Under the pieces are notes generated by a model. It was not told the DNA's origin, made no database searches, and saw nothing but the letters and a program-made list of their open reading frames with translations. Position numbers and translations under genes: made by a program. Of a stretch of 64,000 nt of DNA, positions 284-62,907 are shown piece by piece. Position 1 is the stretch's first letter. The number at the start of each line of letters is the position of its first letter. The stretch spans positions 1 through 64,000 of the IMG/VR virus record IMGVR_UViG_3300044678_002654; one strand, written 5' to 3'. Source of the stretch: a virus.

Positions 284-293
284 TTTTCACGGA

Positions 294-476
294 GTGAACA
301 TGGAAGAACCTCAGTACGACAAGGCCCTCGTAGAGGCAGGGCGCATGTCGTTCGCGATCGATCGCATCAGCGCCGCGCTACAGGCTGGTGACCCGAGGGC
401 GTTCGGGGCTGCGTGTGAGAATCTGCTGCACGCGAAGATCAAGTACGACCAGGAGATGCTGAAGAAGGCTCGCTGA
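294..476 (+). CDS. small hypothetical protein
   Basis: 60-aa ORF (alternative ATG at 300) whose stop abuts the convergent terminase stop. Confidence 0.55.
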   Translation: MNMEEPQYDKALVEAGRMSFAIDRISAALQAGDPRAFGAACENLLHAKIKYDQEMLKKAR

Positions 477-2135
477 TCACCCGGCCGTCAGGTCCCAGTC
501 ACCCGTCGCCATTTTGAGGGCGATGTCGGCGTAGTTCAGCGCGTGCAGGAAGTCATCGGGCTTGGTCGGAGCATGGCGCCAGCGCTTGGTGTCCTTGTTC
601 GGCCCGGTGAGCTCCTCGTACTCGTTGAGGATGTCCTCGAATGGCTGCGCGATCTCCGCGATGTTGTCCGTCTTGAGGTCACGAGGGAACTGGAAGTCGT
701 GGTTGTGCCCGAGGCTCATCATCACGCGGTCGATGGATCGCGTGCGGTTGAGATTCCAGAGCCCGGTCTTCTGGTTGTATTCGACGTACTTGTCGCTATC
801 GACGTACTTGACCTTGAAGATGCGCCGCGCGGAGCCGAACTTCTTGCGGAGCATGTCGGTTGGCATGTTGCCGCCGCCCTCGTCACCGCAGACGTGCGTG
901 CAGTTGGTGTAGAAGCAAAGCGCTGAGTAGATCTCGTTTACTTCGTCGACGGGGTGGGTGCCGGGGAAGATCTTGTAGTAGAGCACACGAGCTTTGCCCA
1001 GCCCCGGCACCCACCCCAAGATGACGAGCACGGTGCGTGAAGTGAGGCCCGACCCACCACCAGACCAATCGATCCCTGCGGCGACCTTGCTGACGCCCTT
1101 CATGTTGGCGGTAGGGTCTGGGCGGAGGGAGATCGCCGGCCCCGTGCACGCTTCACGGAGCTGCTCGATTGTGACGAGGCGCCGGCCCATGGAGTCCGAG
1201 ATGCCAAGGACCTCGTTGCGGAAGATCGAGAGAGGGTGGGGCTTCTTCCCGTTGAGGAGGAGCCAGATCTTCTTCCAACGTTCCAGTGCGCGTTTGTGCC
1301 CGTCCGAGTCAGGAGCCCACGCAGCGGGCACGTCACGCGGCATGATGATGCGCGAGACGTGGAACCCCTTGTACTCAGCCCCGGGGTTCATGTCGATCCA
1401 TTGCCCATTGCGCGGGTTCAGGTACCGACCACAGCCGCTGATCTGACAGATGGGGCCGAACTGCCCCATGGCCTTTTCTGAGCGCACGACGTTGTACTTG
1501 CCGCACGCGTCACACTTGATCACCCACTCCGATTGCGTGGACGCCACCCAGAGGTGCTGGAGTCCGTTCTCCATCGTCTTGGGCGTGCCGCAGTACATCT
1601 CGTACTGCTCATCCATCTCTCGGTAGCACTCCTGGGCCACCGGCTGCACGACGTCGAGGAGCATGTCCTGGACCTCGTCGAACAGCAGTCGGTTGGTCGT
1701 GACGCCGCGCACACGGTCGGCGTTGTCGGAGGCGTAGGAGAAGTAGAGCTTCGCGTGGGTGTGCGCGAACTCACGGGTCAGCACGCGGTTGGACGTGTTC
1801 GCGTCGGTGAAGTACTCCTTGATGATCGGAGAGCCTTCGATGACGGCAGCAACACGGTCGACCGAGAACTTGTGGGTCTGCTCCTGGGTCGGCGCGATGA
1901 AGAACGTCTTGAAGTAGTCGCGCGTGACCGAGTCGATGGTCGCGTACGTCGCGAGCGTCGTTGACTTGCCGATCTGCCGACAGGTCAGGAGTACCGTCTT
2001 GTCGTAGTTCCCGTTGTAGATCGCCTCGAACATCGGGTAGTTGGCGAGCGACAGCGGCTTGCCTTCGATCCGAATGAGGCTCTCCGCGTACTTCGCGCGG
2101 GTCGCGTAGACGGTGTTACCTTGTTGCTTGATCAT
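477..2135 (-). CDS. terL: terminase large subunit (GpA-like)
   Basis: Walker A CRQIGKST, Walker B LLFDEVQD, GTPKT motif, CxxC...CxxxxC zinc site, and a C-terminal RNase H-like nuclease (GIDW...KPDDFLHALNYA). Confidence 0.92.
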   Translation of the reverse strand: MIKQQGNTVYATRAKYAESLIRIEGKPLSLANYPMFEAIYNGNYDKTVLLTCRQIGKSTTLATYATIDSVTRDYFKTFFIAPTQEQTHKFSVDRVAAVIEGSPIIKEYFTDANTSNRVLTREFAHTHAKLYFSYASDNADRVRGVTTNRLLFDEVQDMLLDVVQPVAQECYREMDEQYEMYCGTPKTMENGLQHLWVASTQSEWVIKCDACGKYNVVRSEKAMGQFGPICQISGCGRYLNPRNGQWIDMNPGAEYKGFHVSRIIMPRDVPAAWAPDSDGHKRALERWKKIWLLLNGKKPHPLSIFRNEVLGISDSMGRRLVTIEQLREACTGPAISLRPDPTANMKGVSKVAAGIDWSGGGSGLTSRTVLVILGWVPGLGKARVLYYKIFPGTHPVDEVNEIYSALCFYTNCTHVCGDEGGGNMPTDMLRKKFGSARRIFKVKYVDSDKYVEYNQKTGLWNLNRTRSIDRVMMSLGHNHDFQFPRDLKTDNIAEIAQPFEDILNEYEELTGPNKDTKRWRHAPTKPDDFLHALNYADIALKMATGDWDLTAG

Positions 2136-2799
2136 ACTGAGCGGCTCTCGCGGTCTCGCGGCCTTCGATGTACCTGCGGAGATCCAAGAGCCGTGTGAGC
2201 TGTACGCCCGCAGCGGTTTCGCCAGCGTCGCGCGCTGCTCGGTCCAGGTCTACGAGAGACATCGAAGATGCAGCGTCACGAAGCGCGACAATCTCTGGGT
2301 AGGTCGCCTCGCCATCATCCACGAAGGTCATGCGCTCCATGACGTCGTCGACGAAGGAGAGCTCCTTGGGCGCGACGTGCCAACCGTCGTCGATGAGCAC
2401 GCACGCGACTGCCGGGTCGATCTCGTCAGGGTCAAAGCCGTGGTTCTCCAGATCCACGAGCTTGAGCCCGCTGAGCGCGGAGCATTCGTTGACCGCCCAC
2501 GCAAGCTGTTCCGGTGTCGGGTGTTGTGGGAAACCAGCCTCGACAGGCACGCCGTCGCAGGCGAGTGCGATGGCGAAGAGCACCTCGTAGTTTGAGCACC
2601 ACTCGCGCGTCGTGACCACGGTTTGCGCCGCAAGGAGCTTGCCCATGAGCTCGGTCGTAGGCGTGACACCCCTGCGGCGTAGTTCGATGTGCAGGGTATC
2701 AGGTTCCCAGTCCTGTACCTCAGGCCCGAAGAGGTGGACGAGGGCCTTCCACGCCGCTGATACGGCCGCGTCCGGGTTTCGCAGGACGTCCCGGTCCAT
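2116..2799 (-). CDS. hypothetical protein, terminase-adjacent
   Basis: 227-aa ORF overlapping the terL start, in operon orientation. Confidence 0.7.
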   Translation of the reverse strand: MDRDVLRNPDAAVSAAWKALVHLFGPEVQDWEPDTLHIELRRRGVTPTTELMGKLLAAQTVVTTREWCSNYEVLFAIALACDGVPVEAGFPQHPTPEQLAWAVNECSALSGLKLVDLENHGFDPDEIDPAVACVLIDDGWHVAPKELSFVDDVMERMTFVDDGEATYPEIVALRDAASSMSLVDLDRAARDAGETAAGVQLTRLLDLRRYIEGRETARAAQYDQATR

Positions 2800-2800
2800 G

Positions 2801-3799
2801 TCAGAGCCCTGCGGCGGTCACAGAGCGGGCGAAGGCACGCTTCAGGTCGGCAGGCAGCGTCGCGAGAACCATGGACGCCTGCTTGGCGTCGACGTTGCCT
2901 CCTGGCGCGATGGCGGAGAGGATGTCTGGCCCGAGAGCGTCCGAGTAGAGCGACGCCGGGATGCGGGCGAAGTCATCAGGAGAGAACGCGCGGCCACCCA
3001 TCTCGACCGCTTCGCTCGCGACCTTGGTCGTGTTGTGCACGGTCTGCATCGGGTCGAGGAACTGCTTGTCGTAGGTCTTGTCGAACCCGGCGTCACGATC
3101 CAGCCGCGCGATGGTCGCCGCTACCTTGATGCGCGTCGGCTCGGCGCGGAGAGACGCACCATCGCTCGACACAGCCTCCGCGAGCGAAGCGAACTTGGCG
3201 CGAAGGGCCGGGTCTCGCGTCGCATCGGCGCGCGCACGTAGGTGATCCGAGAGCATGTGCGTGTCACAGGCCGTCTTGCCTGCGAGCTGATAGGACGAAG
3301 GCGTCAACTTCACCGCGTGAAACTCAGCCGCCTTGGCGAGGCGCGCGAACGCTTCGGCGCGCGTCGTCGCAGACAGCTTGGTGATCTGGCCGAGCAGGCG
3401 CATCTCGGCGGTCTTCACCTGTGAAGGCGTCGTGACCGGGTAGAGCCCGGTCTCGGGAAAGATGCACTCCTGTGGGTTGACGCTGGCCACCTTGGTCCTG
3501 GGTGGCGCGCTGATGGCGGGCGGCACTTCGTGCGCGTCGCACGCGTCCGCGATCTTGAGCCGCACACGCTCGGGCACGTCGCTCGCCTCCTTGGCGTAGA
3601 GCGCGGAGAGCGCGGCGTGCTCAGGTGTGTGAACCGGGAAGAGCTGGCGCTCGGGCCACGCGTACGCTCCGGGAGGAAGCGGCGGCGCGGTGTCTTCGAT
3701 CGAGGCTTCCTTGAGGAACTCCGCAGCCTCCGGGTTTTCAACCAGGAGGTGACGAAGGCGCGCGTGCGCCGGATCGTGGAACTGATCGTGCGTGGCCAT
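2801..3799 (-). CDS. putative virion/head-associated protein rich in K-x-A motifs
   Basis: 332 aa with repeated KEAS/KVAS/KTAE/KAAE/KFAS/KVAA. TAGCCT lies 8 nt before the ATG. Confidence 0.7.
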   Translation of the reverse strand: MATHDQFHDPAHARLRHLLVENPEAAEFLKEASIEDTAPPLPPGAYAWPERQLFPVHTPEHAALSALYAKEASDVPERVRLKIADACDAHEVPPAISAPPRTKVASVNPQECIFPETGLYPVTTPSQVKTAEMRLLGQITKLSATTRAEAFARLAKAAEFHAVKLTPSSYQLAGKTACDTHMLSDHLRARADATRDPALRAKFASLAEAVSSDGASLRAEPTRIKVAATIARLDRDAGFDKTYDKQFLDPMQTVHNTTKVASEAVEMGGRAFSPDDFARIPASLYSDALGPDILSAIAPGGNVDAKQASMVLATLPADLKRAFARSVTAAGL

Positions 3800-5135: not shown

Positions 5136-6037
5136 GACCCAATGTCCGTGATGACGACGACAGGCCCGCCGCCCGTCGGCAAACCATGAAGAACCGCTTC
5201 GTCTCGCAGAAGCTCAAGCCCTCGCTTTGTGGTGCTGCCGAAGTCCAAAGCGTCTTGGAGGGAAGGCTCCAGCGAACCCCATCGGTTCGTTCGAAACAAC
5301 GGCTCGGCAGGGCGTTCACGCAGTGAAGACCCGCCTGTGCCAGAGATCATCAGCGCAACATCACGGCGTAGCTCCCATGTAAGCCCGTCTCGGCGCTCAG
5401 GGAAATAGCGAAGCTCCCCGCTACCTGCTTCGTCTTGAATTTCCACCCAAGGGAAGCTCCACGTTGCTGAAGGAGCCGCTTCAGGTGAAACGACAGCGAT
5501 AGATGTCACCGCGTTGGTACCGTCGACACTGAGCACTTGGGCGTAGCCGTTGTACCCCGACGTTACCATCCCTTGGAGACGGAACCAGCGCCCCACATCG
5601 TGGCGAGTGAAGGGGTACCCAGCGAGCACTACCTTGCCCCCGGACAGTACGTTGACGCCAACGCCATTGGCGCGTGCTGACACCTGCGCGATGAGGAAGT
5701 CTCTGTCGCTGTACGGAGCAGCAGTTTCAACCCAGTGATCGGTGTCAGCTCCGGTGACACGGAAGATGTCACCAGCCTGTGCGAGGCCGAAGAAGTCGTG
5801 GCCGTTGGCGCTTTTCAGGTCGAGTCGATTCAGCCTGTTCTCGGAGAGCGCAACGAGGTCGTTCATGCTCGCGACACGCTCGAAGAACTCCCGGCCGCCA
5901 ACGTCGCGAACGACGAACGCGGGCTCGAAGATGTCTGGCGACGTCACGTCAGGCGGATCGCGCGCAATGCTCTGCGAGAGCCACCAGCCGTTGCGCCGTG
6001 GGGAGCGTTCTTGACGCAGTCGGATGACATGGGGCAC
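5132..6037 (-). CDS. hypothetical (probable virion) protein
   Basis: 301 aa, beta-rich, GTG start 6 nt after TAGGAT. Confidence 0.7.
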   Translation of the reverse strand: MPHVIRLRQERSPRRNGWWLSQSIARDPPDVTSPDIFEPAFVVRDVGGREFFERVASMNDLVALSENRLNRLDLKSANGHDFFGLAQAGDIFRVTGADTDHWVETAAPYSDRDFLIAQVSARANGVGVNVLSGGKVVLAGYPFTRHDVGRWFRLQGMVTSGYNGYAQVLSVDGTNAVTSIAVVSPEAAPSATWSFPWVEIQDEAGSGELRYFPERRDGLTWELRRDVALMISGTGGSSLRERPAEPLFRTNRWGSLEPSLQDALDFGSTTKRGLELLRDEAVLHGLPTGGGPVVVITDIGS

Positions 6038-6059: not shown

Positions 6060-6620
6060 ATGAGACGGCGCGCGTTCGTTGGGATTGACTCCTCGCTCCA
6101 GCAGCCAGGGCTTGCGGTGCTGTGGGATAACGGCGAACGCAAGTTCATCGGATCACTTCGTACTGGCTCGTTGAGAGGCGGAGCACGCCTCGCGTCAATC
6201 GAGAAATGGATCGTCGACAACGTCGGCGATGTTCACATCGTCGGGTGCGCAATCGAGGGCCCAAGCCTTGCGAGCACGCACCGCGAGTTTGACCTCGGAG
6301 AAATCTCCGGGGTCTGTAGATGTCTTGCTTCACGTGCTTGGGAGGTAGAGGCGACGATCGTGCCGCCGTCACAGCTCAAGCTCTTCGCGGATGGGAACGG
6401 CCGCGCAGAAGACCTGATTCACGCCGTGAAACGGCACTGGGGTGTTGATGTAGGTACTGACGATAACGCCGCAGACGCATACGCTCTCGCCCGTCTCTCG
6501 CGTGCTCTGGTACACGGACCAGGGCCCCGCCGCTGTGAAGCTGAGGTAGTCCGCGACATCCTGACGCCGAGGGTGAAGACGCCGAAGCTCCGCAAGACCA
6601 CCAACCGTGACAATGTCTGA
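6060..6620 (+). CDS. ruvC: RuvC-like Holliday junction resolvase
   Basis: Acidic catalytic motifs FVGIDSS, AIEGP and DDNAADA, plus PSQLKLFA. Confidence 0.85.
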   Translation: MRRRAFVGIDSSLQQPGLAVLWDNGERKFIGSLRTGSLRGGARLASIEKWIVDNVGDVHIVGCAIEGPSLASTHREFDLGEISGVCRCLASRAWEVEATIVPPSQLKLFADGNGRAEDLIHAVKRHWGVDVGTDDNAADAYALARLSRALVHGPGPRRCEAEVVRDILTPRVKTPKLRKTTNRDNV

Positions 6621-8970: not shown

Positions 8971-8990
8971 TCTTCACTGCGTGAACAGAC

Positions 8991-9056: not shown

Positions 9057-11792
9057 TCAGGTGTACCCGTACTCCTTGGCGATGTAGGAGAACGAGTAGG
9101 TGCTGTCGGCCTCGGTGATGTTGATAGGAAGCGCCGACTTCTGCACGAAGTAGTGGTTGTTGCGCAACGGCAGGACCACCTGCCCGTAGAACGTGTACGC
9201 CATGGTCGTCTCAGCCTTGAAGGAAATCGACACGGTCGCGAGGATGTTTTCGTCTTGGTCCTTGAAGACGAGAGAGTGAAGGGTGTTCGTCGGTGAATGT
9301 CCCGTCCCAGCAGTCGGCTTGAGCGTGATGGTGTACGAGATCACCACCGCAGCGACGAAGCGCCCCGTGAGCGTGCTGACCGTGAGTTCTGTGCCTGCCG
9401 AAGCCGTGCTCAACCCCGTGAATCCACCGTTCACTACAGACGGGGGATTGACCACCGTCAGCCCGGTGAGCTTCTCTCCGTGGTGGTGGTTGTCGGTGGC
9501 GTCGACAGGCGTCCCTGTCTCAATCCCCTTGAGCTTGGCGTAGTCGCTCGTGTGCAGGAGCGAGAGCGTGGTCTTGGTCGTGTTGAACGGCGCGTACTCG
9601 ATCCTGTCGGGGTAGAAGCGGGCGCGCAGGGTTCCAGCCCCGCTTCCGCCACCGTTGGGCGTGTAGACTTCGAGCATTCGTGCGTCATTGCTGGCTGCGC
9701 CGAACACTGCCCACGGATTCACGGACGTGCCAGGACCGCTGAACTGAAACGCGTGAAAGCGCGTGAAGCGCCAGTCGTTGTCGACGGCGACCACCGAGTA
9801 GAGCGTGACCGCAACGTTGCCGCTCATGCCCGTAAAGTCGGGCGTCGCGCCGTTGCTCTTTCGGAACGTCAGCAGCTTCGAGCCGGTGTTGTAGGCCGAC
9901 ACATAGTACAGGCCGTCGCTCGCGTCGGCGGCCCCTGTGAGGCCGGTGATCTTCGCGTAGATGAGCGGTACGGTCTTCCCCGTCAGCGCGATGTTGACGA
10001 TCGGGAGCTTCGCCGCGACGTTCCCGAAGCGAGTCGAGCTCATGGACGCCACGAGCTGCGTGCTGGAAGAGAAAGCGAACGTCTCGCCCTCGCCCAAGAA
10101 GTCGTTGCTGAGGTCAGCAGGGTTCGCGTAGACGATCGCCTGGAGGGTGAGCGACGAAGCCTCGTGCACCCCCGCAGGAGAAATGTTCATCAGGTCAGGG
10201 GGCGCGTGCAGCTCTCCGAGGGTGAAGATCGCCCCGGTCGCGGGCTGTCCTGCTGCGCCGAACACCTTTGCGAGCGGCGAGGCCCCGACCATGTAGTGGC
10301 CGTTCTCGCTCACTCGTCGGTTGATGGCGGAGAGAGCAGCCAAGAGCTGTTCACGCAGTGAACCTGCGGCGAGGCTCACGACATTCGCGGCGTTCTGCGC
10401 CGTCGTCGTCCCGGTCAGGGCTTCGGCGCCGATGCGTCGGGTGCCGGAGTTGTTCGTGGTCACACGCCCGTAGTACTCGATGAGCTGGTTCAGCGTCGCG
10501 ATGAGCGTCGTGTTACCGACGCGCTTGTACCCGGCCCCTTCGTTGTCGTCGTCGGTCCACGCATGAAAGTACTCGGAGTACTCCACGCCGATGCTTCGAG
10601 CGCCGCTGACGTTGGCCGCGATCGCGGCGAGTCGGTCCCAGATCGTCGTGCTCTCGCCGAGGAACGCCTCCTTCTCCAGCCCGATGCGAGTGCCATCGAC
10701 GAAGATGAACTCGCTGCCGACCATCTTCCCGATGGGGATCGCGCCAGGGATCTTGTGCGGCTCGAAGCCCGTGTTGATCAGGTTGTACCCGACGCTCGGA
10801 GTCGTGTTCTGCACCACGGTACCCGCGCGGTCTGTGGGCAGGTCCCACAGCGACTGCCGCCTGCCACCCTTCGGGACCGAGATCCCGGTCTCCACGGGAC
10901 CAGGGGCGTAGGCAATCGCGAGGCTCTCGCCTTCTCGAAGCTGGTTGTCCGAGACACCGAAGAACGCCGCGAGCTGCGCCGCCGTTACCTGATGCGCCTC
11001 AGCGTCGTAGGCGCCGCGCACGACGCCGCCAGTGAACGCAGTAGGTGCCGCCGACCCGGAAGTCGCAGGGTCACGGCTCGCGCGGAAGAACCGAGCAGGT
11101 CCGTAGGTCTCACCCGTGAAGTTGTTCGCGGGGTTGTTCACGTACGCGATGACCTGATCGATCGTCGTGCTGGACGTGAGCGTCCCGTAGGTGATCGTGA
11201 TCTCCCGCTTGGGAGCGCCTGAGATGGTGGACGTGATCGTACCTGCCGCTGCCGCAGGGTCCGCCACGAGGGCGAGCGTGAAGCCGTTGGCTCCGAGCGT
11301 GATCGCGAGGTTGCCACCACCGCCGTCGTAGTTCTTCCCGTCGGCGTAACCGCGATGCCCGACGTAGTCCGAATTGACCGCGAAGGTGATGTCGTTGGTG
11401 AGGTACACGCCTGCGTAGGGCAGGCCGTTGACGAACACTCGGCCGCCCTTGTGCCGACCACCGCTCACGCGGCCCGGGGTCAGGGCCGGGTAGACCCACA
11501 GGTCGTCCTCGGTGCCCGCGACCATCTGGAGAGAGTGCCTTCCGCTGCCCTCTGCGTGAAACAGGAACTTCGCGTTGGAGCGAAGGACGAGCCCACGGTC
11601 ATAGTCCGCGAGGTACAAGAGCGTCTCAACCGCTTCGCGCACACGCTCCGTGCGCTTGCGCAGATGCTCCGTCGTGCGGTTGAGCACAGGAGCAATGAGC
11701 GTCTCGCTCCCGATCGGTTGTACCGACGCGGCGTCGTCGCGACCGGTGTCAGACGACTGCTTGAACCGGAGAATCTGATCGAAGAAGCTCAT
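9057..11792 (-). CDS. putative tail fibre / distal virion structural protein
   Basis: 911 aa, G/T/S/A-rich beta composition, last gene of the baseplate operon. Confidence 0.65.
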   Translation of the reverse strand: MSFFDQILRFKQSSDTGRDDAASVQPIGSETLIAPVLNRTTEHLRKRTERVREAVETLLYLADYDRGLVLRSNAKFLFHAEGSGRHSLQMVAGTEDDLWVYPALTPGRVSGGRHKGGRVFVNGLPYAGVYLTNDITFAVNSDYVGHRGYADGKNYDGGGGNLAITLGANGFTLALVADPAAAAGTITSTISGAPKREITITYGTLTSSTTIDQVIAYVNNPANNFTGETYGPARFFRASRDPATSGSAAPTAFTGGVVRGAYDAEAHQVTAAQLAAFFGVSDNQLREGESLAIAYAPGPVETGISVPKGGRRQSLWDLPTDRAGTVVQNTTPSVGYNLINTGFEPHKIPGAIPIGKMVGSEFIFVDGTRIGLEKEAFLGESTTIWDRLAAIAANVSGARSIGVEYSEYFHAWTDDDNEGAGYKRVGNTTLIATLNQLIEYYGRVTTNNSGTRRIGAEALTGTTTAQNAANVVSLAAGSLREQLLAALSAINRRVSENGHYMVGASPLAKVFGAAGQPATGAIFTLGELHAPPDLMNISPAGVHEASSLTLQAIVYANPADLSNDFLGEGETFAFSSSTQLVASMSSTRFGNVAAKLPIVNIALTGKTVPLIYAKITGLTGAADASDGLYYVSAYNTGSKLLTFRKSNGATPDFTGMSGNVAVTLYSVVAVDNDWRFTRFHAFQFSGPGTSVNPWAVFGAASNDARMLEVYTPNGGGSGAGTLRARFYPDRIEYAPFNTTKTTLSLLHTSDYAKLKGIETGTPVDATDNHHHGEKLTGLTVVNPPSVVNGGFTGLSTASAGTELTVSTLTGRFVAAVVISYTITLKPTAGTGHSPTNTLHSLVFKDQDENILATVSISFKAETTMAYTFYGQVVLPLRNNHYFVQKSALPINITEADSTYSFSYIAKEYGYT

Positions 11793-12276: not shown

Positions 12277-15200
12277 TCAGGTAATCCTAATCGAGAGGGG
12301 TCGGTCGATGATCTGCGGAGAGGCGCTCACGGAGCCGCCGATCGGGTTCTCTCCGCCGACGTTGAGAGACGTCTCAAAGCCCAGGAGGGGGTCGCCAACG
12401 CCGCGCGTCCGCAAGAAACACGTTTTGACCGAGAAGGTCAACGTGCCCGAGTTTCCTTGCGAGATCGTGAGCTCGCCGGTAGCCCGGTTGAACGTGTAGT
12501 CCACCCCTTCAGTGAGACGGCGCGTGTAGCCGCTCGCTGTGTGCGTGGCATTGGTGAAACGAGCGAAGAAGATCAGCCATCTGTACGGTAGTACGAAGCC
12601 TACCGGAGCGGTCGGTGTGATCGTCGTCGTGTACGAGCCGCCTGGGTAAACGACGGAGAAGTTTTCGTCGACGTACGTAAAGGCGTCGTTCACCTGGAGT
12701 ACGTCGTCAGGCGCGCTGATGATGTTGTCGGGTACGCCGAAGCCTTCCGTCATGGTGGCGGTAAGGCCCACGTCGAAGTCTTCACCGAGTGAAAGACGGT
12801 CGACGAGGTCAGTCGATGACTCGATGAATGCGTAGATGTGCGCGGGTCGCGTTTCACGCACGAGCGCGGCGGCCTCATTGATGAGAGACACGTTGCGCGC
12901 CATGCTTGGGTGGACCCTGATGGAGATGGCGTGGCGCCGCAGGAAGCGGTCCATCAGGATGAACGGCACTGTTCGACGGAAGAGCAGATCGGGAAGTCGC
13001 ACCGACAAGCTCACTGGTGCAGGTACGCCGTGCGCTTCCGGCGGGGGAAATCGGTCAAGCCGTACGGTCGTGTTGTCGTTGCGTACTTCTAGGACCTCGT
13101 AGTGCCCTGCGAACCCTGGTGTATCGACGACGATGTATTGTCCAACGTCACGGGCCGTGACGCCGGGACTGGTGTTCACGAGCAGCCATGAGCCCCCGGG
13201 CCAGAATGCGGACCCCGCCCGCTTGATACCGGGCCTGCCCTCGTCGTCGAGACCTACGTAGAGGTCTGGGTCACCACAGTACGGCGCATCAACCGCCCCG
13301 ACCTTGTGCTCGATCAGGAGGGAAGACACGTACCGGCGTGTGGCCTCTCCGACTTCGTCATCAAGGTCGAGCAGCTCAGGGGGAATCGCCACACGATGCC
13401 ACCACGTAGGATCGATGTCTTCGCTCTCAACCACGAAAGCGTCAGTCAGGACCTCGTAGGCAGAGAACGTGTACTTCCCGAGGTTGCCAGCGTCAGCGAC
13501 AGCTTCGGAAGGTGGCACAGAGAATGGCAGCCGGTAGGTACGTCGGGACGTAGTGACTCGTTGCTCGCGGGTACGAGTCATGCGCCACTCCAGGCCGGTT
13601 TCGTCGATGAAGCCCCACGACGCCTCCAGTCGGACAGAGGAAGGGCTCTCCACCGCGATCACGCGATACGTGCCGTTGTTGCGGCTGTTCGTCGCTGTCT
13701 TGATCTCGATGTCGGCTCCGATGTCGTCCTGCTCGAAGGCAAACGTCGAAGACGTGACCGTGAAGCGGCGGGTGACCAGCGCGTGGGTATAGCGCCAAAC
13801 CACACCCGTCTCGTTCGCGGTAGGGGCCGGCGAAATGGTAACCGTTGTCGCCGAAGTCACGCCTGTGATCACAACCTCTCGCGACCCTGTCGGAGAGCTC
13901 AGCGTAATCGTTGAGCCCACGTCAGCGGCGAAGAACCCGCCCGTAACCGAAGTGAACGTCGCCCCTGAGATTGCCAGGACGCCGTCCCGGCCTTCGCGTC
14001 CGTCCGTCACGGCGCCGTAGCCGTCTGCGGTAGACGCATGTACGCCGTCGTCGTAGGCGAGCAGCACCTCCCCGTCTTCGCGCACGACAGGCAGGTCGAA
14101 CATGACGTTGAGCGCAGTCTCAAGGCGAGTCGCGCTTGCGCCGAGAAGATACAGCCGCGCTACACCCTTGAGGAAGGCGCGGTACGCGTCGCTCGTGCGG
14201 CGCCTAAAGCCCAGGAGGTACCCGAAGTTCCGGTAAAGAACGTCACGGTCCACGAGCACGTCACAGCCCCAAAGGGCCATCTCCCTCATGGGGCAAACAA
14301 CGTCAAACGTGAACGGTACGACCTCGTTTGTGTAAGTCTCCTCCGAAATGACGAGGTCCCACTCGTAGGACGCTTGTGCGTCGTGTGCGGGGTCCCAGGC
14401 CGTACGAAAGTACACTCGCCCGGTGTCGTAGTTGACCTCGTAATCAACGCCCTCAACGACGACACCGCCCGCAGGGTATGCGGCGCCGACTGCGTGATAA
14501 CGGGTCGCTTGCACGCGCAGCGTCCCCTCTCGGATGTTGGCGTGGTTCAGCTCGAAGCCCGCAGGGCTCCCGGCGCCAGCAGGCAGCGTCACGAGGTACG
14601 CGATGAGCGGCGAGCTTGCGTCGAAGTCAGCGGGTGCGTCGAGAGTTACTGCGCCGACTCCGACTGAGTTCACGCAGTGAAAGCCTGAATTGCGTGGAGA
14701 GACCGGGTCATAGAACGAGATGTACTTGCCGACCCATCCGGCGTCAGGCGAGGCCACCGTCAGATCGGTCGTCCCTGCGACAGGGGTGACCGTGATCGGA
14801 ACCACGGCAGACGGGCGCTTCATCTTTGTGCCGGTCTGCCGGTAGTCGAACGGTTCACGCACAATACGGGCTGTAGCAGCAGGTACAGCAGCCTCGCTCG
14901 CTGCTGCAAACTCTGGTGGAGCTACATCAAGCAGGACTTTACCTCCTTGCAGCGCGCGCACCGTCGCTACGGCCTTGGAGCCGTTAGCAACGTGGAACTG
15001 GAAACTGTCGCCAGGACGCGCGTCCCCCCAGTCGCCAGACAGAGCTGCCGCGAACGCCACATCCACCGACCTCACGGGGAAGGGCGCGTAACGAACCGCG
15101 TCGAGCGGATTTTCTCGGAAGTGGATGGCGTCGTCCTTGACCTCGTAGTCTCGGGGGCTCTCGACGACGCTCGTCGGAGCGATGACGCGGTTCATCAAGC

Positions 15201-35307: not shown

Positions 35308-35311
35308 AACA

Positions 35312-44112: not shown

Positions 44113-44556
44113 ATGTCCCTGAACGACCGCACCCTCGCCGAGCTCGCACAGGCGCGCTTTGACCTTTCACCGCGTGAATCCAAGGCGCTCAGTGAAGGGC
44201 ATCGACGCGCCGTCGAGCTCGCTGGTGAGCACCTCCCAGATCTCGTCGCCGGGTTTCGACAGTACGCACAAGAGCTGCTCCGCGACGAGCTCCAGCGGAT
44301 CTCAGTGCAGCACTTCGGTGTTGACTGGGAACCGCTCCTCGAATACGGCGCCTGGGACGCCATCGTCTCGGGCGCGCAGCGCCTCACCGAGTTCCAGGTG
44401 CGTAGGCTCACACGTCTCTCGCAGCAGGCCGGGGGGTGGTACCATTACCCTACGCAGGCGGCGGGGCCGGTGTTCGTAAGCCTGGAAATCTGGGCAGACC
44501 TCTACGACAAGCACGTCGCGTACCAATCGCAAATTCGGCGCGATACGACGCGCTGA
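44113..44556 (+). CDS. hypothetical protein
   Basis: 147-aa ORF in a plus-strand run. Confidence 0.6.
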   Translation: MSLNDRTLAELAQARFDLSPRESKALSEGHRRAVELAGEHLPDLVAGFRQYAQELLRDELQRISVQHFGVDWEPLLEYGAWDAIVSGAQRLTEFQVRRLTRLSQQAGGWYHYPTQAAGPVFVSLEIWADLYDKHVAYQSQIRRDTTR

Positions 44557-45289: not shown

Positions 45290-45880
45290 ATGGCGTGCCG
45301 TTCCTGTGGGGGACAGACCCTCAACCTGAGCGATGAAGAGGTCGGCGGCGCAATCGGACGCGGGGTCTGTGAGTGCTGGACGACAGGGCGGTGCACGGTC
45401 TGCGTCCAAGGCCCCGTCGTTCAAGAGGTGTACGACGCAGGCCACGACGACCGCGACGACCCCGACATGCGATGTCGCGCGCACCGGCACGTCGACATCG
45501 CCGAAGACATCGTGTTCCAGCCGCGCACGATCGCGCCCGAGGCGCCGATGCTGGAGCATCTGGTCTTCGAGCTCCGACGCGACCCGCGCACGTACCTGTG
45601 CAACGGCTGCGGCAAGAACTACAAGAGCAAAGACACCAAGGTCATCAGAGGGCAAAGAGGCTGGCAATTGTGCTGCCCTCGGTGTGAGAGCACTGAGTGC
45701 ACCGTGAAGCCTGCCGAAATGCAGAAGCACAAGGACCTCGGCTCCGAGATCGTTCACAGGGATCCCCCGTACTGGCCGGTGCAGCGTGGCATCATCGCGG
45801 TGCCTGCATCGGTCACCTCGCTCCGTAAGCGGCTCGTCCGACGATCGAGCCGCGCGGTGCGCGAAGACTTCACTGAGTGA
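45290..45880 (+). CDS. Cys-rich zinc-binding hypothetical protein
   Basis: Multiple CxxC pairs; ends FTE* inside a palindrome copy. Confidence 0.6.
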   Translation: MACRSCGGQTLNLSDEEVGGAIGRGVCECWTTGRCTVCVQGPVVQEVYDAGHDDRDDPDMRCRAHRHVDIAEDIVFQPRTIAPEAPMLEHLVFELRRDPRTYLCNGCGKNYKSKDTKVIRGQRGWQLCCPRCESTECTVKPAEMQKHKDLGSEIVHRDPPYWPVQRGIIAVPASVTSLRKRLVRRSSRAVREDFTE

Positions 45881-45886
45881 AGAGCA

Positions 45887-48385: not shown

Positions 48386-49094
48386 ACCGCCCGAGGTCCA
48401 TCTCCGGTTTCACTGCGTGAACGACGGCCACGAACAGGTCGCTGCCCCACGACACGCCTTCGACACCGAGCAGCTTCTCGGCGGCGGCTTCGCTCTTCGG
48501 CCCGAAGTCCCCGTCGGTCTTCACTCCGAGGAGGTGCTGCGTGTAGATCTTCGCGCACTTCTCCGAGATCTGGCGGTGTGAGGCAATGGACCGGTCAGGC
48601 CGCGCCTTGGTGTTCTCGCCCTTGTAGCCGGCCTCGATGAGGTCGTCGAACCAGGGCTCATCCGCCCAGAACTGCTCGCCGCAGAGCTTGTAGCGATGGC
48701 CGTCAGGCGCGTTGCGGGGCACAAAGCGCGCGAGCCACTGCGTGAAGAAGTCGCGCGCAGAGCCGAACACGCGGTAGTAGCACCACGGGGGATCGCCGCT
48801 GGTCTTGTTCCCCTTGGCGCGAAACCAGGGGACACCCGGGCCAGCAGCCCTCTTGGTGATCTTCCAGCCGCCGAGGTTGTTGCCCTTGCGGTGCTTGCCC
48901 CATCCCGTCTCCACGACCGTGTTGGCCACGATCTCGAAGCGCTTGACGAGGTCGAGCCCTTCGAGGTCAGGCATCGCCTCGATGCACATGACGACGAAGT
49001 CTCCCGGTTCGATGGGGGGCGGGTTGGTACGCAGTTCAACGCCGAGATCGAGCCAGAACGGGGGGTTCTCGGGCGGCAGGTTCCACTTCTCCAT
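48288..49094 (-). CDS. putative endolysin (glucosaminidase/FlgJ-like muramidase plus peptidoglycan-binding motif)
   Basis: VETGWG...NNLGGWK...YRVFGS...LIEAGY, with C-terminal QHLLGVKTDGDFGPKS. Confidence 0.75.
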   Translation of the reverse strand: MEKWNLPPENPPFWLDLGVELRTNPPPIEPGDFVVMCIEAMPDLEGLDLVKRFEIVANTVVETGWGKHRKGNNLGGWKITKRAAGPGVPWFRAKGNKTSGDPPWCYYRVFGSARDFFTQWLARFVPRNAPDGHRYKLCGEQFWADEPWFDDLIEAGYKGENTKARPDRSIASHRQISEKCAKIYTQHLLGVKTDGDFGPKSEAAAEKLLGVEGVSWGSDLFVAVVHAVKPEMDLGRFSPSRSTSEELHAHALEVALDASLEQDESAPA

Positions 49095-49845: not shown

Positions 49846-51389
49846 TTCACGGGGTGAAACTTGCCGAGCTCCTCACGGAGCTTCAGCCGCAGCAGCAGCG
49901 CCTCGTCGACAAGCTGCGCGCCTCGGGCGGCCTGCTCGCGCTCCACGGCGTCGGAGCTGGCAAGAGCCTCGGATCCATCGCCGCCAAGGAAAACCTCGGC
50001 GTCCCCGCTGAGTTCATCGTCCCTGCGCCCCTCCAGGAGAACATCAAGAAGGAGTTCGTCAAGCACACCGGGGAGATGCCCGACGATGCGCGCGTCCGCT
50101 CCTACGAGAAGGCTGTGCGGTCTGGTGACCTGAACCTCGACGGCCTCGTGGTCTTCGACGAAGCACAGAAGGGGCGTAACCCCGGCACCGGAGCGTCTGA
50201 GCTTCTGAGCAAGGCGCGAGCGGCCAAGTACCGTCTGCTCCTCACGGGGACCGGCGTTTACAACCAGCCCCAGGACATCGCGCCCCTCATCAACTCGGCG
50301 GCAGGAACAGAACGCCTCCCACAAAACGGCTCAAAGTTCAAGAGTCTCTTCGTCGGTGAGAAGGAGCTCAAGCCGGGATGGTTTGATCGGCTTCGCGGCC
50401 TCGAACCGGTGAAGGTGCCTGTACTGAAGAACAAGCAGAAGCTCATCGACGCCGCCACTGGCTACGTCGACGTGCATCAGTCTGGCACAGGCCCTGACTT
50501 CCCTGGGCGCGAGGACGTCGAGCACCACGTGCCGATGTCACCGAGGCAGCTTGAGCTCTACAAGTACCTCGAAGGCCAGATGCCATGGTACCTGCGCGCG
50601 AAGATCCACGCGGGCCTGCCGATGACCAAGCAGGAAGCGCAAGAGCTCAACGCGTTCCAAGGCGCACTGCGACAGGTCTCCAACACCCCGCGCCCCTTCA
50701 TCGAGAAGATGGAGGATGATGAGGAGCTCGCGCTCGCGCCGAAGATCCAGCGGATGGTCGACAACCTTCAAGCCGCTCGAAAGGCCGACCCCAACTTCCG
50801 CGCCTACGTCTACTCGAACTACCTCGGCGGGGGCCTGCACCCGTACGCGAGGGCGCTCGCCAAGGCGGGCATTCCGCACAACCTGTTCACGGGCGAGACC
50901 AACCCCAAGGACCGCGCGCGGATCATTCAGGAGTACAACGAAGGCCAGTCACCGGTCCTCCTCGCATCTGGAGCCGGCAGCGAGGGCCTGGACCTCAAGG
51001 GGACAAAGCTCGTTCAGCTCATGGAGCCCCACTGGAACAACGCGCGGCTCGAACAGGCCATCGGGCGCGGCATCCGGTACAAGTCTCACGCGCACCTCCC
51101 CGACGCAGAGCGCAAGGTGCGGGTGGAGAAGTACTACTCCGTGTTCCCTGACACGCTCGCCACGAAGCTACGCCTCAAGGACAAGGACCGCGCCGTCGAG
51201 CAGTACATGCGCGAGATGAGCGACGTGAAGGGGCAGCTCGCGCGGCAGATCATGGCCGCGATGCAAGAGGCGAGCGACAAGGGCACGAGCCAGATGGCGG
51301 CGATCGCCAAGGCGCGCGCAGCGGCGGAAGAGCAGACGAGCAAGAACGCCGAGTGGCTCGGGGCGCTCGCCGACTACCCTACGGAATGA
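49842..51389 (+). CDS. SNF2-like superfamily 2 helicase
   Basis: HGVGAGKS, VFDEAQ, LLTGT, GSEGLDLKG and EPHWN...EQAIGRGIR. Confidence 0.88.
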   Translation: MIHGVKLAELLTELQPQQQRLVDKLRASGGLLALHGVGAGKSLGSIAAKENLGVPAEFIVPAPLQENIKKEFVKHTGEMPDDARVRSYEKAVRSGDLNLDGLVVFDEAQKGRNPGTGASELLSKARAAKYRLLLTGTGVYNQPQDIAPLINSAAGTERLPQNGSKFKSLFVGEKELKPGWFDRLRGLEPVKVPVLKNKQKLIDAATGYVDVHQSGTGPDFPGREDVEHHVPMSPRQLELYKYLEGQMPWYLRAKIHAGLPMTKQEAQELNAFQGALRQVSNTPRPFIEKMEDDEELALAPKIQRMVDNLQAARKADPNFRAYVYSNYLGGGLHPYARALAKAGIPHNLFTGETNPKDRARIIQEYNEGQSPVLLASGAGSEGLDLKGTKLVQLMEPHWNNARLEQAIGRGIRYKSHAHLPDAERKVRVEKYYSVFPDTLATKLRLKDKDRAVEQYMREMSDVKGQLARQIMAAMQEASDKGTSQMAAIAKARAAAEEQTSKNAEWLGALADYPTE

Positions 51390-51390: not shown

Positions 51391-51555
51391 GTGAGACAAG
51401 GTCATCGGCCTTCGAGGAGTGAGACCCACCGACGTACGCGCAAGCCGATCGTCGACAAAGAGTCGACGCCCCGTAGGCCGGCCCCTGCGTCACCACGGCT
51501 CCCGCTCCTCTTCCTCGAAGTGACCCCGCTGCCTGACGACTTCTTCACGGAGTGA
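51391..51555 (+). CDS. possible 54-aa small protein
   Basis: GTG start, fills the gap, ends FFTE* inside a palindrome copy. Confidence 0.35.
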   Translation: MRQGHRPSRSETHRRTRKPIVDKESTPRRPAPASPRLPLLFLEVTPLPDDFFTE

Positions 51556-51557
51556 AA

Positions 51558-53708: not shown

Positions 53709-54038
53709 CTACCAAGCATCTGCTGGCAAAAGGTACCCCCGATCGATCACGCCTTGAAGCTCTTCCACGTCGCACGAGCCGCCCATCTTGTTGAGCGTAC
53801 CGTAGGCGTGGAGGAGGTCTTCGGCGTCGGCGAGGCTCATTTGTTTTCCACGGAAGCGGACGTGCGCCTCCAGGCGGAAGCGCTCGATACGCCGTCGCGC
53901 AGCGCTGACGTTGGCGTCGTAGTTGAGGTAGACGTTTTGAAAGCTCGGAGTCCCGAGCGCGTCCACCGTTGCCTTGTCACGCGCGGCGCTGAGCCGTTCC
54001 AACTCGTTGATGAGGTCCTTACCGTTCACTTGTTTCAC
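53709..54038 (-). CDS. hypothetical protein
   Basis: 109 aa; GTG start inside a palindrome copy. Confidence 0.55.
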   Translation of the reverse strand: MKQVNGKDLINELERLSAARDKATVDALGTPSFQNVYLNYDANVSAARRRIERFRLEAHVRFRGKQMSLADAEDLLHAYGTLNKMGGSCDVEELQGVIDRGYLLPADAW

Positions 54039-54064
54039 CCCGTGAAAGTTTGTAGCTTACCTGT

Positions 54065-55843: not shown

Positions 55844-55859
55844 CCGGGCGTTTCACTCG

Positions 55860-56192
55860 GTGAACTACGCACCACCGGACGAGGTGCGCGCCAACGCGGC
55901 GCGCGGCCTCGTTCTCGTAAGCGAAGGCCGTGGCGGCAAAGGGCTCAAGCCAGCGACGGTGCGACAGGCGCGGCGCATCGCGGACGGCAGGGGCCTTGAC
56001 TACGACGAAGCAAAGGTGAACCTCGCGTGGTTCGCCAGATTCGGCGCCTACACCGCCGCAGTAGCTGCGCGCCGACGTGACCCCCAATGCCCAGCCGCCG
56101 TCTCGTGGCTCCTGCACGGCGGCGACGAAGGATGGGAATGGGTCCGCGAGATCGTCGAGATCGACTTTCCACTCCCGCAACGAGGTCCTTGA
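55860..56192 (+). CDS. conserved phage hypothetical protein
   Basis: ANAARGL...WFAR...VSWLLHGGDEGWEW motif. Confidence 0.65.
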   Translation: MNYAPPDEVRANAARGLVLVSEGRGGKGLKPATVRQARRIADGRGLDYDEAKVNLAWFARFGAYTAAVAARRRDPQCPAAVSWLLHGGDEGWEWVREIVEIDFPLPQRGP

Positions 56193-58942: not shown

Positions 58943-59224
58943 ATGCAGGTAACATGGGTTCGCGGTGGGCGTACGCGGGATGAGGTCTTCGACTTCGATG
59001 ACATCGACGACCTCGCTGATGTGATGGACGCAGAGTTCGGGTTCGAGGACGAGGACACGTTCCTCGACGCGGCCACGGAGGGGTCTGACGAGACGGTCTA
59101 CGTCTACCTCGACGAGGACAAGCTGATCCAGTGGACGCTGTCCCGAGGCACTGCGGCCAAGCGGCTTCAGCAGTTCGGCGAAGAAGACGAGAACGACGAG
59201 GAGGACGAAGATTTCACGGGGTGA
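58943..59224 (+). CDS. very acidic small protein
   Basis: 93 aa, roughly one third D/E; ends FTG* inside a palindrome copy. Confidence 0.65.
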   Translation: MQVTWVRGGRTRDEVFDFDDIDDLADVMDAEFGFEDEDTFLDAATEGSDETVYVYLDEDKLIQWTLSRGTAAKRLQQFGEEDENDEEDEDFTG

Positions 59225-59260
59225 AGTCAGCGCTCCCTTCGTCCTGATGCGGAGGACACT

Positions 59261-60468: not shown

Positions 60469-60501
60469 CTTTCACGCGGTGAACGTCGTAGGCTCTTTCT
60501 T

Positions 60502-62027: not shown

Positions 62028-62240
62028 GTGAAGAAGTACACCACCGAGTCTCTCGCCGCTGCTCTCGGCATCTCACGCGACGACGCCTACTCCCTCCAGG
62101 TCTACCTCCGCCACGTCGGCGCCCTGGTCGAAAACGGGGAGGTCATCAAGAAGGACGGGACCAAGGGCAAGGGAGCCACCGTCTTCGTGGTCGACGCCGC
62201 GAAGATGGCAGACGTGTGTGAGAAGCTGAAGAGCCTCTGA
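62028..62240 (+). CDS. small putative winged-HTH protein
   Basis: YTTESLAAALGISRDDAY...GKGATVF. Confidence 0.6.
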   Translation: MKKYTTESLAAALGISRDDAYSLQVYLRHVGALVENGEVIKKDGTKGKGATVFVVDAAKMADVCEKLKSL

Positions 62241-62503
62241 TGGCAGCAAACCGCGAGTGGAAGGTTCAAGCAGGGACGCAGCATCCCGATGAGCCGGGGC
62301 ATCTCTGCGAAGGAACCCTGCGTAGGTACGCAGAGAAGGCTGACGAGTCCGTTGGCCCTTACATGGAGGAGGACTACGAGCAGGCCATCGTGGACCTCTT
62401 GTCCGACCTGATGCACCTCGCGGACCGTGAAGGGGAGGACTTCGAGTCACTCCTCGAAACTGCGCGAGGGCATTACCGAGCAGAGATCGACGGGGAGCTG
62501 TAA
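62240..62503 (+). CDS. small hypothetical protein (paralog of 37384-37617)
   Basis: DLLSDLMHLADREGEDF...ARGHY motif. Confidence 0.65.
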   Translation: MAANREWKVQAGTQHPDEPGHLCEGTLRRYAEKADESVGPYMEEDYEQAIVDLLSDLMHLADREGEDFESLLETARGHYRAEIDGEL

Positions 62504-62506
62504 CCC

Positions 62507-62653
62507 ATGCACAAGCCGAAGCCTTACGCCCCTGATCTGTTCTACCCGAGGAACCGCGCCGAGCGCCGTAAGGCTCGACGGGACGGATACCCTGTTCGGC
62601 CCCCGTGGTCCTTCCCCATGGTTGTCTTAGGTCTGCCCGAGAAGAGCCTATGA
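62507..62653 (+). CDS. 48-aa basic peptide
   Basis: MHKPKPY...NRAERRKARR...; ATGA overlap with the next gene. Not in the ORF track. Confidence 0.45.
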   Translation: MHKPKPYAPDLFYPRNRAERRKARRDGYPVRPPWSFPMVVLGLPEKSL

Positions 62654-62907
62654 GCGGACACGTCTACCGTATCTACGACTTCGACGCCCCCAAGAAAGAC
62701 GACAGTCTGGGGACTCTTTCACTCGGTGAAGTTGAGGACGCCCTCGACCACTTCGTCTGCAACGCATCGAACGAGAGCTGGGAGGCCGCCCTTCGCGCGG
62801 GGGACGACATCTACCTCTACGTCGACGGTGGCGTCGTCCACTGGGGCACCTCCAGGGCGCAGGTTCAAGAGTCATACGAGACCGGTCAAGATGACGTCGT
62901 CGACTGA
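62650..62907 (+). CDS. small hypothetical protein
   Basis: 85 aa, acidic. Confidence 0.55.
   Translation: MSGHVYRIYDFDAPKKDDSLGTLSLGEVEDALDHFVCNASNESWEAALRAGDDIYLYVDGGVVHWGTSRAQVQESYETGQDDVVD

Follow-up and report, generated by a model that had tools for sequence, protein, structure and literature searches.

One of the closest published likenesses to the array described here comes from the Cluster O mycobacteriophages. Corndog carries 34 copies of TGTTCGG-N3-CCGAACA, a 17-bp dyad with invariant arms and a variable 3-bp spacer, whose function is unknown and for which a dimeric binder has been proposed (PMC4351075); 31 copies of the dyad are reported from Ryadel (PMC6439249). The repeats are found genome-wide, between as well as within genes, in phages that are not obviously temperate and that encode a protein with a ParB-like domain, which the authors, in the relevant section, do not link to the repeats (PMC4351075). 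Here we consider a comparable array in the 88,342-bp virus record IMGVR_UViG_3300044678_002654 of IMG/VR (G000; CheckV completeness 51%), the first 64 kb of which, positions 1 to 64,000, form the window that was analysed. Its element is a 13-bp palindrome, TTCAC-N3-GTGAA, that recurs at even intervals along the contig. Both arrays exceed 30 copies and combine invariant inverted arms with a spacer of 3 variable bp, a likeness of kind and not homology; the Cluster O arms are 7 bp long as against 5 bp here, and the section of the Corndog paper on these sites has them denser toward one genome end and does not describe them as evenly spaced. By terminase the phages are unrelated, and no Mycobacterium phage was among the 49 tblastn matches to the terminase of G000.

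Dispersed palindromes read by proteins of the ParB family provide a second parallel. KorB of plasmid RK2 belongs to this family and binds an operator, OB, which is a short palindrome with the core TTTAGCGGCTAAA; as a clamp gated by cytidine triphosphate (CTP) it slides, and acts up to 1.5 kb from that operator (PMC11790492). OB sites and the present array both consist of short palindromes dispersed over a mobile replicon, although here a ParB-family candidate reader has been found only in relatives. RK2 has about a dozen OB sites, and KorB has a ParA partner, IncC, and uses KorA as its clamp lock; G000, by contrast, carries 38 sites on half of a probably lytic phage genome and no recognised ParA, and the sites have other arms, a 3-bp spacer and statistically even spacing. 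In Bacillus subtilis, Noc binds palindromic Noc-binding sites (NBS) scattered round the chromosome (PMC4331003, PMC8429893), and two bases distinguish NBS from parS (PMC7333895). As a ParB paralogue that lacks a ParA function, Noc resembles the phage ParB proteins discussed below in being an orphan, but NBS is a contiguous 16-mer and Noc is a cellular protein that tethers DNA to the membrane.

Other systems have only some of these features. The stoperators of Cluster A mycobacteriophages are 13 bp long and dispersed every few kilobases, and a single protein that recognises them exerts global control (PMC4351075, in part). They are, however, asymmetric, oriented with transcription and serve a prophage repressor, whereas the sites in G000 are perfect palindromes in a contig in which no integrase was found. 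The matS sites of enterobacteria are 13-bp palindromes of the same 5-3-5 layout, confined to the terminus region; their arms are different, and no match to the MatP family was found among the G000 proteins scanned. The linear plasmid-prophage N15 scatters a handful of ParB-type (SopB) sites over a phage genome and has a full partition system.

The window contains 29 perfect copies of the motif (Table 1), and an earlier note on this DNA, made from the letters alone, had every coordinate and sequence right; the whole of G000 contains 38, while the reversed control pattern occurs 0 times. That note put the chance expectation at about 0.02 copies, and 100 dinucleotide shuffles of the window bear it out with a mean of 0.03 and a maximum of 1, so that the motif is enriched about thousand-fold. 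Sites with one mismatch number only 3 in the window and 5 in G000. Because the mismatch spectrum of the contig runs from 38 perfect sites through 5 with one mismatch to 34 with two, the ten arm bases must be held very tightly. The same arms at other spacings occur 0-1 times each in G000, and the unspaced form TTCACGTGAA 0 times. Over 87 sites from four genomes of the clade to which G000 belongs (clade A, below), the base after TTCAC is never A (0/174 half-sites) and the central base is C or G in 83 of the 87; the proposed spacer rule, with C or G at the centre, a first base other than A and a last base other than T, is obeyed by all sites in the window, but its central element is broken twice outside it (GAG, CTC). 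The base preceding the arm is T in 82 of the 174 half-sites, the sites do not preserve the outer TG of parS, and no conserved flank that would give them a direction lies within 20 bp.

The gaps between the 38 sites have a mean of 2327 bp, a minimum of 568 and a maximum of 4866, with a coefficient of variation (CV) of 0.40; within the window they run from 1006 to 4263 bp with a CV of 0.36. For window and contig alike, 0 of 200,000 uniform placements produced a CV as low as that observed. The comparison of gap variance with random placement that the earlier note had suggested thus shows a spacing far more even than chance, and the same evenness recurs in the related genomes G001 and G006; its statement that all gaps exceed 1 kb is true of the window, with one exception (568 bp) in the rest of the contig. 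Nor is evenness a by-product of placement at gene ends, because 50,000 random draws of 38 gene boundaries gave a mean CV of 1.14 and a lowest value of 0.58, none reaching the observed figure.

With respect to genes, 18 of the G000 sites are at junctions or intergenic and 20 are intragenic. Genes cover 91% of the contig, by the rough ad hoc gene caller from which all G000 gene coordinates derive, and since 18/38 sites nevertheless lie at junctions or between genes, junctions are favoured. The characteristic junction form is TTC-ACG-GAG-TGA, which closes the upstream gene and supplies a GGAG for a start 1-5 nt further on; about ten sites stand 1-5 nt upstream of a start codon with GGAG in the spacer. 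In the packed left arm, with its long minus-strand structural genes, the sites are written into coding sequence. Intragenic sites fall in genes of both strands, ten times in phase 1 (reading H-x-V-K/N) and ten times in phase 2 (S-x-x-E), whereas phase 0 occurs only at gene ends because it creates a TGA stop. In 300 synonymous-codon shuffles the mean number of intragenic sites was 0.65 and the maximum 3, against 20 observed. No shuffle retained the observed number, and selection therefore acts on the DNA, as had been supposed; the arms remain perfect while spacer, flanks and encoded protein diverge.

The position of about ten sites directly upstream of start codons, with GGAG in the spacer, would also suit an element that works as a nucleic-acid structure, that is, a hairpin with a 5-bp stem and a 3-nt loop in single-stranded DNA or RNA, serving as a promoter or as a signal for RNA processing or translation. 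The 5+3+5 geometry is that of a minimal hairpin, the phages encode their own RNA polymerase, and the virion RNA polymerase of phage N4 uses hairpin promoters. Against this, the fold is weak (3/4 sites at -2.4 to -3.0 kcal/mol, within the range of shuffles), the arm sequence and not just its pairing is invariant over the 87 sites with no compensatory changes, there is no conserved directional flank within 20 bp, and half of the sites lie inside long genes; we regard this explanation as extremely improbable.

The sharpness of the mismatch spectrum could be taken to indicate instead that the sites are the targets of a sequence-specific enzyme, either a nickase or endonuclease opening the DNA at intervals in replication, recombination or packaging, or a modification enzyme by which the phage marks its DNA as its own. 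A split of 38 perfect to 5 one-mismatch sites is sharper than in most operator sets, the clade conserves both a RuvC-like resolvase and PD-(D/E)XK nucleases, and the motif core CACNNNGTG is the DraIII restriction site. Yet CACNNNGTG outside the motif occurs 30 times in G000 against about 29.5 expected from base frequencies (a hand calculation), and so is neither avoided nor enriched. Restriction targets, moreover, are normally depleted in phage genomes while the grid motif is enriched, nicking at a palindrome would sever both strands, and no DNA methyltransferase (PF01555, PF00145, PF02086) was found in G000 or its relatives G001, G006, G007 and G021. An enzyme target is, in our judgement, decidedly improbable.

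Relatives were gathered by a scan with an alignment of two terminases, which returned 31 loci, and the relatives with an array, among them G021 from the ParB search described below, fall into two clades. Clade A comprises G000, G002, G003, G004 and G021, of which G002 and G003 overlap and belong to a single phage; clade B comprises G001, G005, G006, G007 and G008. Terminase identity to G000 is 68-69% in three clade-A loci, 77% (over a fragment) in G021 and 38-43% in clade B, and guanine-plus-cytosine (GC) content is 58.5-67% in clade A and 51-58% in clade B. Perfect copies of the motif number 14 in G002 (36 kb), 16 in G003 (40 kb), 10 in G004 (31 kb) and 23 in G021 (43.8 kb, 58.5% GC). In clade B the repeated element is TTAC-N3-GTAA, mostly in the form TTTAC-N3-GTAAA, with 43 copies in G001 (complete, 179 kb; 1.6 expected), 36 in G006 (complete, 180 kb), and 11 in G005 under the strict pattern; G008 has 5-6 within 35 kb, and the grid of G007 is weak, at 14 (2.35 expected). 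TACG(S)CGTA forms the core of this element, and the pattern TACG-N1-CGTA is present in 32 copies in G001. The clade-A motif is absent from clade B, and no hybrid sites were found under TTYAC..GTRAA; the 139,676-bp record L007 (terminase 43%), checked for the clade-A motif only, lacks it as well. Site spacing is about 2.3 kb in clade A and 4-5 kb in clade B. Under-dispersion in the two complete genomes (CV 0.50 in G001, 0.43 in G006) was matched by 0 of 20,000 simulations each, and that of the short contigs by 127-259 of 20,000; G008 is not significant. Among relatives with a terminase identity of 31% or less, no such palindrome occurs in their 20-kb loci, and none occurs in the complete 144-kb genome of G011.

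Sites within genes allow conservation to be followed position by position. For 7 of the 20 intragenic sites of G000, G004 offers an orthologous window without gaps, and 5 of these 7 keep all ten arm bases; the same is true of 2/2 sites between G003 and G021 and 1/1 between G000 and G003, making 8/10 altogether. In background windows of the same genes, all ten positions are kept in 64/2201 and 105/3648 cases (2.9%). The proteins around the orthologous sites of G000 and G004 are 38-54% identical, and spacers and flanks differ. No site position is common to both clades, with 0/8 orthologous places in G001 and G006. Near-identical DNA is present in four lake-water metagenome runs from four studies, one of which may be the source and contains a Logan contig that reaches past the left end of G000, but over positions 1-20000 of the window these contigs are almost identical to it (14 differences listed, all at 58-2900 and 0 inside sites), a divergence too small for a test of conservation. 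The L006 strain (terminase 97% identical) was uninformative also; it diverges past the terminase stop, where it has an unrelated insert of about 270 bp (L006:2044-2374 against window 140-480), and ends before site 1. The array is inherited across a deep phage clade, with its ten arm bases under purifying selection and one arm base changed in the sister clade. Dyad symmetry and invariant arms fit the dimeric reader that the earlier note had in mind, and we think it very probable, from the sequences, that the array constitutes a conserved protein-binding grid of some dimeric protein.

As to which protein this might be, the arms themselves are suggestive, since TTCAC is identical with the inner five bases of the half-site of parS, as printed in the literature (TGTTTCACGTGAAACA). 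Our best explanation, held with moderate confidence, is that the palindromes are genome-wide binding and loading sites of a phage-encoded, partner-less protein of the ParB/Noc/KorB type, with an N-terminal domain of the ParB CTPase kind and a ParB helix-turn-helix. A ParB-type protein is encoded by each grid-carrying relative whose sequence extends over the region concerned. The HTH_ParB domain (PF17762, cut-off 22.6 bits) scores 54.9 bits in G001, 44.3 in G006, 41.3 in G003, 60.4 in G007, 61.1 in G008 and 41.8 in G009; ParB_N (PF02195) is above its cut-off in G006 (57.9 bits), G005 (40.2) and G001 (30.3), and TIGR00180 gives 90-92 bits in G001 and G006. The genes lie at 69754-70677 in G001, at 52535-53482 in G006 and, in clade A, at 20827-22173 in G003. 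In HTH_ParB the eleven more distant relatives (terminase identity of 31% or less) are uniformly negative (11/11). The supposed resemblance to parS has thus fared well in so far as grid-carrying relatives encode a ParB/Noc-type protein, and less well in that the spacer-less parS core has 0 copies in G000.

The best sequence matches of the phage proteins in the PDB are Spo0J (1vz0), Noc (7ol9/7nfu), Caulobacter ParB (6t1f) and KorB (8qa8, at E = 1.8e-7 for the G006 protein); the ENxxR box is retained, and the arginine box reads GERRWRAA in G006 and DGRRRY in G001, while AGRRR is invariant in 10 clade-A ParBs. They form a small subfamily of their own, beyond whose ten close members the next matches are bacterial chromosomal ParBs; in a precomputed domain list P0123-P0132 carry PF17762 alone, whereas the bacterial matches carry PF23552, and the phage proteins have a different, conserved C-terminus. 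The Noc model is their best partial match in NCBIfam (61-109 bits against a cut-off of 315), and because these scores are far under the cut-off they are not Noc. No ParA (PF13614, PF01656) was found in G000, G001, G006, G007 or G003, and the ParA-binding motif [LFI]G[KR]G[LFI] is missing from the three phage ParBs of G001, G006 and G003; they would therefore be orphans, as Noc is. An IMG/VR search by ParB alignment alone, which served as a test of prediction, returned one new contig, G021 (ParB 52% identical), and this has its 23 perfect sites; a scan with another ParB alignment returned only G002 and G003. A profile search of genome contigs with the ParB alignment recovered no relative and so gave no lead to a host or prophage.

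Grid sites also occur around parB itself. In G003, sites at L132:815-827 and L132:2179-2191 flank the gene, 159 bp before its likely start and 6 bp past its stop, and in G021 sites at 12336, 12577 and 14076 closely flank it on both sides; in clade B the sites nearest parB are 1-2 kb away. A sigma-like gene (L132:2245-3132, minus strand) adjoins parB in G003.

Other candidates on these genomes were less satisfactory. Among 150 small G006 proteins, recognised sequence-specific binders other than ParB come down to one XRE protein and sigma factors, and among 123 G000 proteins no helix-turn-helix (HTH) family was found besides sigma factors; the XRE-type HTH protein of G006 is not conserved and was rejected as reader. 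By tblastn, G000 and G001 have in common only the structural and packaging arm, the RuvC-like gene and a DGQHR-type ParB/Srx-like protein at 62961-63821 of the window (P0001). The last has no Pfam match, its best match being phrog_5931 (function unknown) with weak ParB-like matches besides; the DGQHR model gives it 12.4 bits against a cut-off of 58.85, and its family profile finds nothing relevant in the PDB. It too was rejected, as the family is widespread but none of 80 IMG/VR loci with it shows a 5+3+5 grid, and it is absent from G006, G007, G008, G003, G004 and G021. In one unrelated phage contig with a DGQHR-type protein, 370 bp (L077:7943-8315) contain seven copies of GCCAACCTTGGC at multiples of 15 bp, which form a tandem repeat of local extent and not a grid. 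On present annotation, ParB is the only recognised sequence-specific DNA binder common to the grid genomes.

Several observations weigh against a ParB-type reader. Canonical parS is a contiguous 16-bp palindrome, TGTTNCACGTGNAACA, whereas the arms in G000 are always split by exactly 3 bp, and we know of no multi-site ParB system that has been reported as evenly spaced. The clade-A protein of G003 scores below the cut-off for ParB_N (12.7 bits) and just under that for TIGR00180 (56.1 against 58.45), and the usual C-terminal dimerisation domain, PF23552, was not detected in the three phage ParBs. No ParB homologue was found on G000 itself, either with ParB_N (no match) or by tblastn with six ParBs (E > 0.08 throughout). 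The co-occurrence of grid and ParB concerns a single clade, to which G021 also belongs, and amounts to roughly one evolutionary event; G009 has a ParB and no grid in its 15.6 kb, and the grid of G007 is weak. With regard to the gene missing from G000, parB in G003 and G021 sits 12-14 kb left of the terminase, a place past the end of the G000 contig, and by this comparison parB of the present phage should lie 12-14 kb beyond the contig's left end. Because that place falls outside G000, the presence of ParB in this phage rests on synteny.

These points leave room for another phage-encoded dimeric DNA-binding protein that the profiles have missed, such as a small protein of the ribbon-helix-helix or HTH class that would serve as global repressor, as roadblock or in DNA architecture, with ParB a bystander. 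Most of the proteins have no family match (11 Pfam families among 103 G000 proteins, 34 among 150 G006 proteins), and the grid clade has a number of conserved proteins of its own to which no function is assigned, including one encoded at 2116-2799 next to the terminase. The distance of 8 bp between half-site centres would suit compact dimers, and the Cluster O paper, where it treats the repeats, proposes a dimeric binder and is doubtful that the ParB-like gp90 contributes to genome stability (PMC4351075). No such protein has been found, however, and the sole other recognised HTH protein of G006 is not conserved, while the arms equal the inner bases of parS and ParB accompanies the grid in the grid genomes examined. 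We therefore think an unrecognised binder rather unlikely, if worth keeping in view.

The sites might also be read by a protein of the host, for instance its own ParB, a nucleoid protein or a global regulator, which the phage would use or titrate. The arms resemble chromosomal parS, and the clades differ in GC (58-67% against 51-58%) and may have different hosts, which could explain the change of motif between them. But the motif is constant across clade A despite a range of 58.5-67% GC, and the phages carry a ParB of their own; we consider a host reader improbable.

Returning to a phage ParB as reader, we propose a model in which a ParB dimer would recognise the two TTCAC arms, the inner bases of the parS half-site split by 3 bp, close as a nucleotide-gated clamp and slide for 1-2 kb. 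With a site every 2-5 kb, the entire chromosome, of roughly 170-200 kb, would remain covered, and at the 2.3-kb spacing of clade A every base would be at most about 1.2 kb from a loading site; KorB is the closest characterised case, and the 1.5-kb reach of the KorB-CTP clamp matches this grid, which we take as support. Coverage would itself be the object of selection, with a new perfect site kept only where it falls in an over-long gap and redundant close sites left to decay, and such selection is proposed to account for the absence both of long gaps and of close pairs. Each perfect site would have to be paid for, because chance does not produce perfect ten-base sites (0.03 expected).

The weakest step concerns the use to which the bound protein would be put. 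As the most likely use we suggest a KorB-like long-range control or a marking of the phage DNA, alongside the phages' own multisubunit RNA polymerase and sigma-like factors, and we prefer this to segregation because the region of G003 that is missing from G000 holds the RNA polymerase and the sigma-like gene adjoining parB. Condensation, membrane tethering and packaging selectivity are possible roles. Segregation is unlikely and the least likely of all, as searches found neither a ParA nor a ParA-binding motif, nor an integrase, the last in G000, G001, G006, G007 and G003. It is possible, if less likely than not, that the nucleotide-gated clamp has been removed from segregation and coats the whole chromosome of a lytic phage, where it might serve as a mobile cofactor of RNA polymerase or sigma, as in silencing by KorB and KorA or the activation of T4 late genes by a sliding clamp, or might form a ParB-DNA condensate that keeps phage DNA distinct from that of the host for protection and packaging; the even spacing would then reflect the sliding range, shorter in clade A than in clade B.

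Table 1. Perfect copies of TTCAC-N3-GTGAA in the window, with their setting among open reading frames (ORFs; strand in brackets; aa, amino acids) and their fate at orthologous codons of relatives
Site	Position	Setting
1	286..298	TTCACGGAGTGAA; gene junction; GGAG 8 nt before ATG at 300
2	3309..3321	in ORF 2801-3799(-); kept at orthologous codon in G004, G002, G003
3	5315..5327	in ORF 5132-6037(-); not kept in G004 or G002
4	6418..6430	in RuvC-like gene 6060-6620(+); kept in G004, G002
5	8973..8985	3 bp past stop of class II ribonucleotide reductase gene 6607-8970
6	10350..10362	in ORF 9057-11792(-); not kept in G004
7	12781..12793	in ORF 12277-15507(-); kept in G004
8	14669..14681	in ORF 12277-15507(-); kept in G004
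9	18932..18944	in ORF 18002-19129(-); kept in G004
10	20941..20953	in 1558-aa ORF 19842-24518(-)
11	24811..24823	in ORF 24528-25304(-)
12	26637..26649	in 1212-aa ORF 26478-30116(-)
13	28095..28107	in 1212-aa ORF 26478-30116(-)
14	31274..31286	5' end of DinG-like helicase ORF 31258-33375(+)
15	33381..33393	6 bp past stop of DinG-like helicase
16	35296..35308	close to 5' end of ORF 35237-35920(+)
17	36302..36314	intergenic, divergent ORFs 35904-36287(-) / 36443-37051(+)
18	38484..38496	intergenic/junction ahead of ORF 38492-38887(+)
19	42018..42030	gene junction; spacer GGA makes GGAG ribosome-binding site
20	44166..44178	close to 5' end of ORF 44113-44556(+)
21	45869..45881	junction; motif TGA is stop of ORF 45290-45880; next ATG 45887
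22	48409..48421	in ORF 48288-49094(-)
23	49846..49858	junction of ORF 49162-49845 / SNF2 helicase gene 49842-51389
24	51544..51556	junction; GGAG-TGAA-a-ATG
25	54034..54046	between divergent ORFs 53709-54038(-) and 54065-54403(+)
26	55852..55864	junction past ThyX gene 54947-55843
27	59213..59225	junction; motif TGA is stop of ORF 58943-59224
28	60471..60483	intergenic, 19 bp ahead of sigma-70-like gene 60502-61215
29	62718..62730	in ORF 62605-62907(+)

By its sequence, G000 is a large uncultured phage without a close cultured relative, and is probably lytic. The best cultured match to its terminase is that of Salmonella phage Arash at 30.8% identity, all 49 tblastn matches are below 60%, and megablast of positions 19000-31000 of the window against cultured phages gave no match. 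Recognised genes include those for the large terminase (477-2135), a class II ribonucleotide reductase, DinG-like, UvrD-like and SNF2 helicases, ThyX, sigma-70-like proteins, a pentapeptide-repeat protein, a macro domain, a MazZ-like hydrolase and a RuvC-like resolvase; no tRNAs or Rfam families were found in the window. The Holliday junction resolvase (6060-6620, plus strand; phrog_159, E = 4e-22) is present in both grid clades and was not found in G011. The MazZ-like dATP/dGTP diphosphohydrolase N-terminal domain (PF18909, 53249-53626, minus strand, 96 bits) was seen in G000 only among the five records searched; a Z-base (2-aminoadenine) genome is unsupported, there being no PurZ-type adenylosuccinate synthetase on the contig. 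A long pentapeptide-repeat protein (E = 6e-52), of a family that includes DNA mimics acting on gyrase, and a macro-domain protein were recognised among 103 G000 proteins scanned together.

The transcription genes of these phages also deserve mention. The sigma-70-like protein encoded on the plus strand downstream of site 28 of Table 1 has regions 2 and 4, and a second sigma-like protein of G000 matches region 3. In G003, left of the terminase, the minus strand encodes a 1657-aa fused RNA polymerase (L131:10597-15567) that joins a beta-type part (Rpb2 domains 3 and 6) to a beta-prime-type part (Rpb1 domains 1 and 2), and a 765-aa protein with Rpb1 domain 5 (L131:6830-9124). Both proteins are 43-55% identical between the clades and are also found in the grid-less G011; these phages encode their own multisubunit RNA polymerase. 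The same region of G003, which is missing from G000, also encodes a family A DNA polymerase, a primase-like protein and nucleases.

The earlier note had called the system undescribed, and this needs qualification, for its kind is known in two halves: dyad arrays with a 3-bp spacer have been published for Cluster O, and dispersed palindromes read by ParB-family proteins are known as KorB/OB, a clamp with dispersed operators on RK2, and as Noc/NBS. The exact motif, on the other hand, was not found in print by a literature search for its strings, and a search for evenly spaced palindromes in phage genomes returned nothing relevant. A survey of ParB-CTPases describes, where it deals with phage-encoded ParB, domain fusions and no site arrays (PMC12704722). 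What is not found in print, the supplementary site lists of RK2 and Cluster O lying outside the search, is a large lytic phage with a grid that is statistically even over the whole genome, and the pairing of such a grid, throughout a deep clade, with an orphan ParB of canonical type.

If the proposed interpretation is true, ParB clamps are not only centromere proteins, and a whole lineage of large lytic phages tiles the viral chromosome with ParB; the sliding range of a CTP clamp would be written into these genomes as site spacing, at about 2.3 kb in clade A and 4-5 kb in clade B. It would also supply a candidate reader for the dyad arrays of Cluster O, unexplained since 2015, and the 13-mer with its protein would make an orthogonal tag for labelling DNA. 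The one-base difference between the motifs of the two clades, together with their diverged ParBs, offers a ready-made system for the study of a specificity switch, and the grid provides a cheap sequence signature by which this phage lineage may be recognised in metagenomes.

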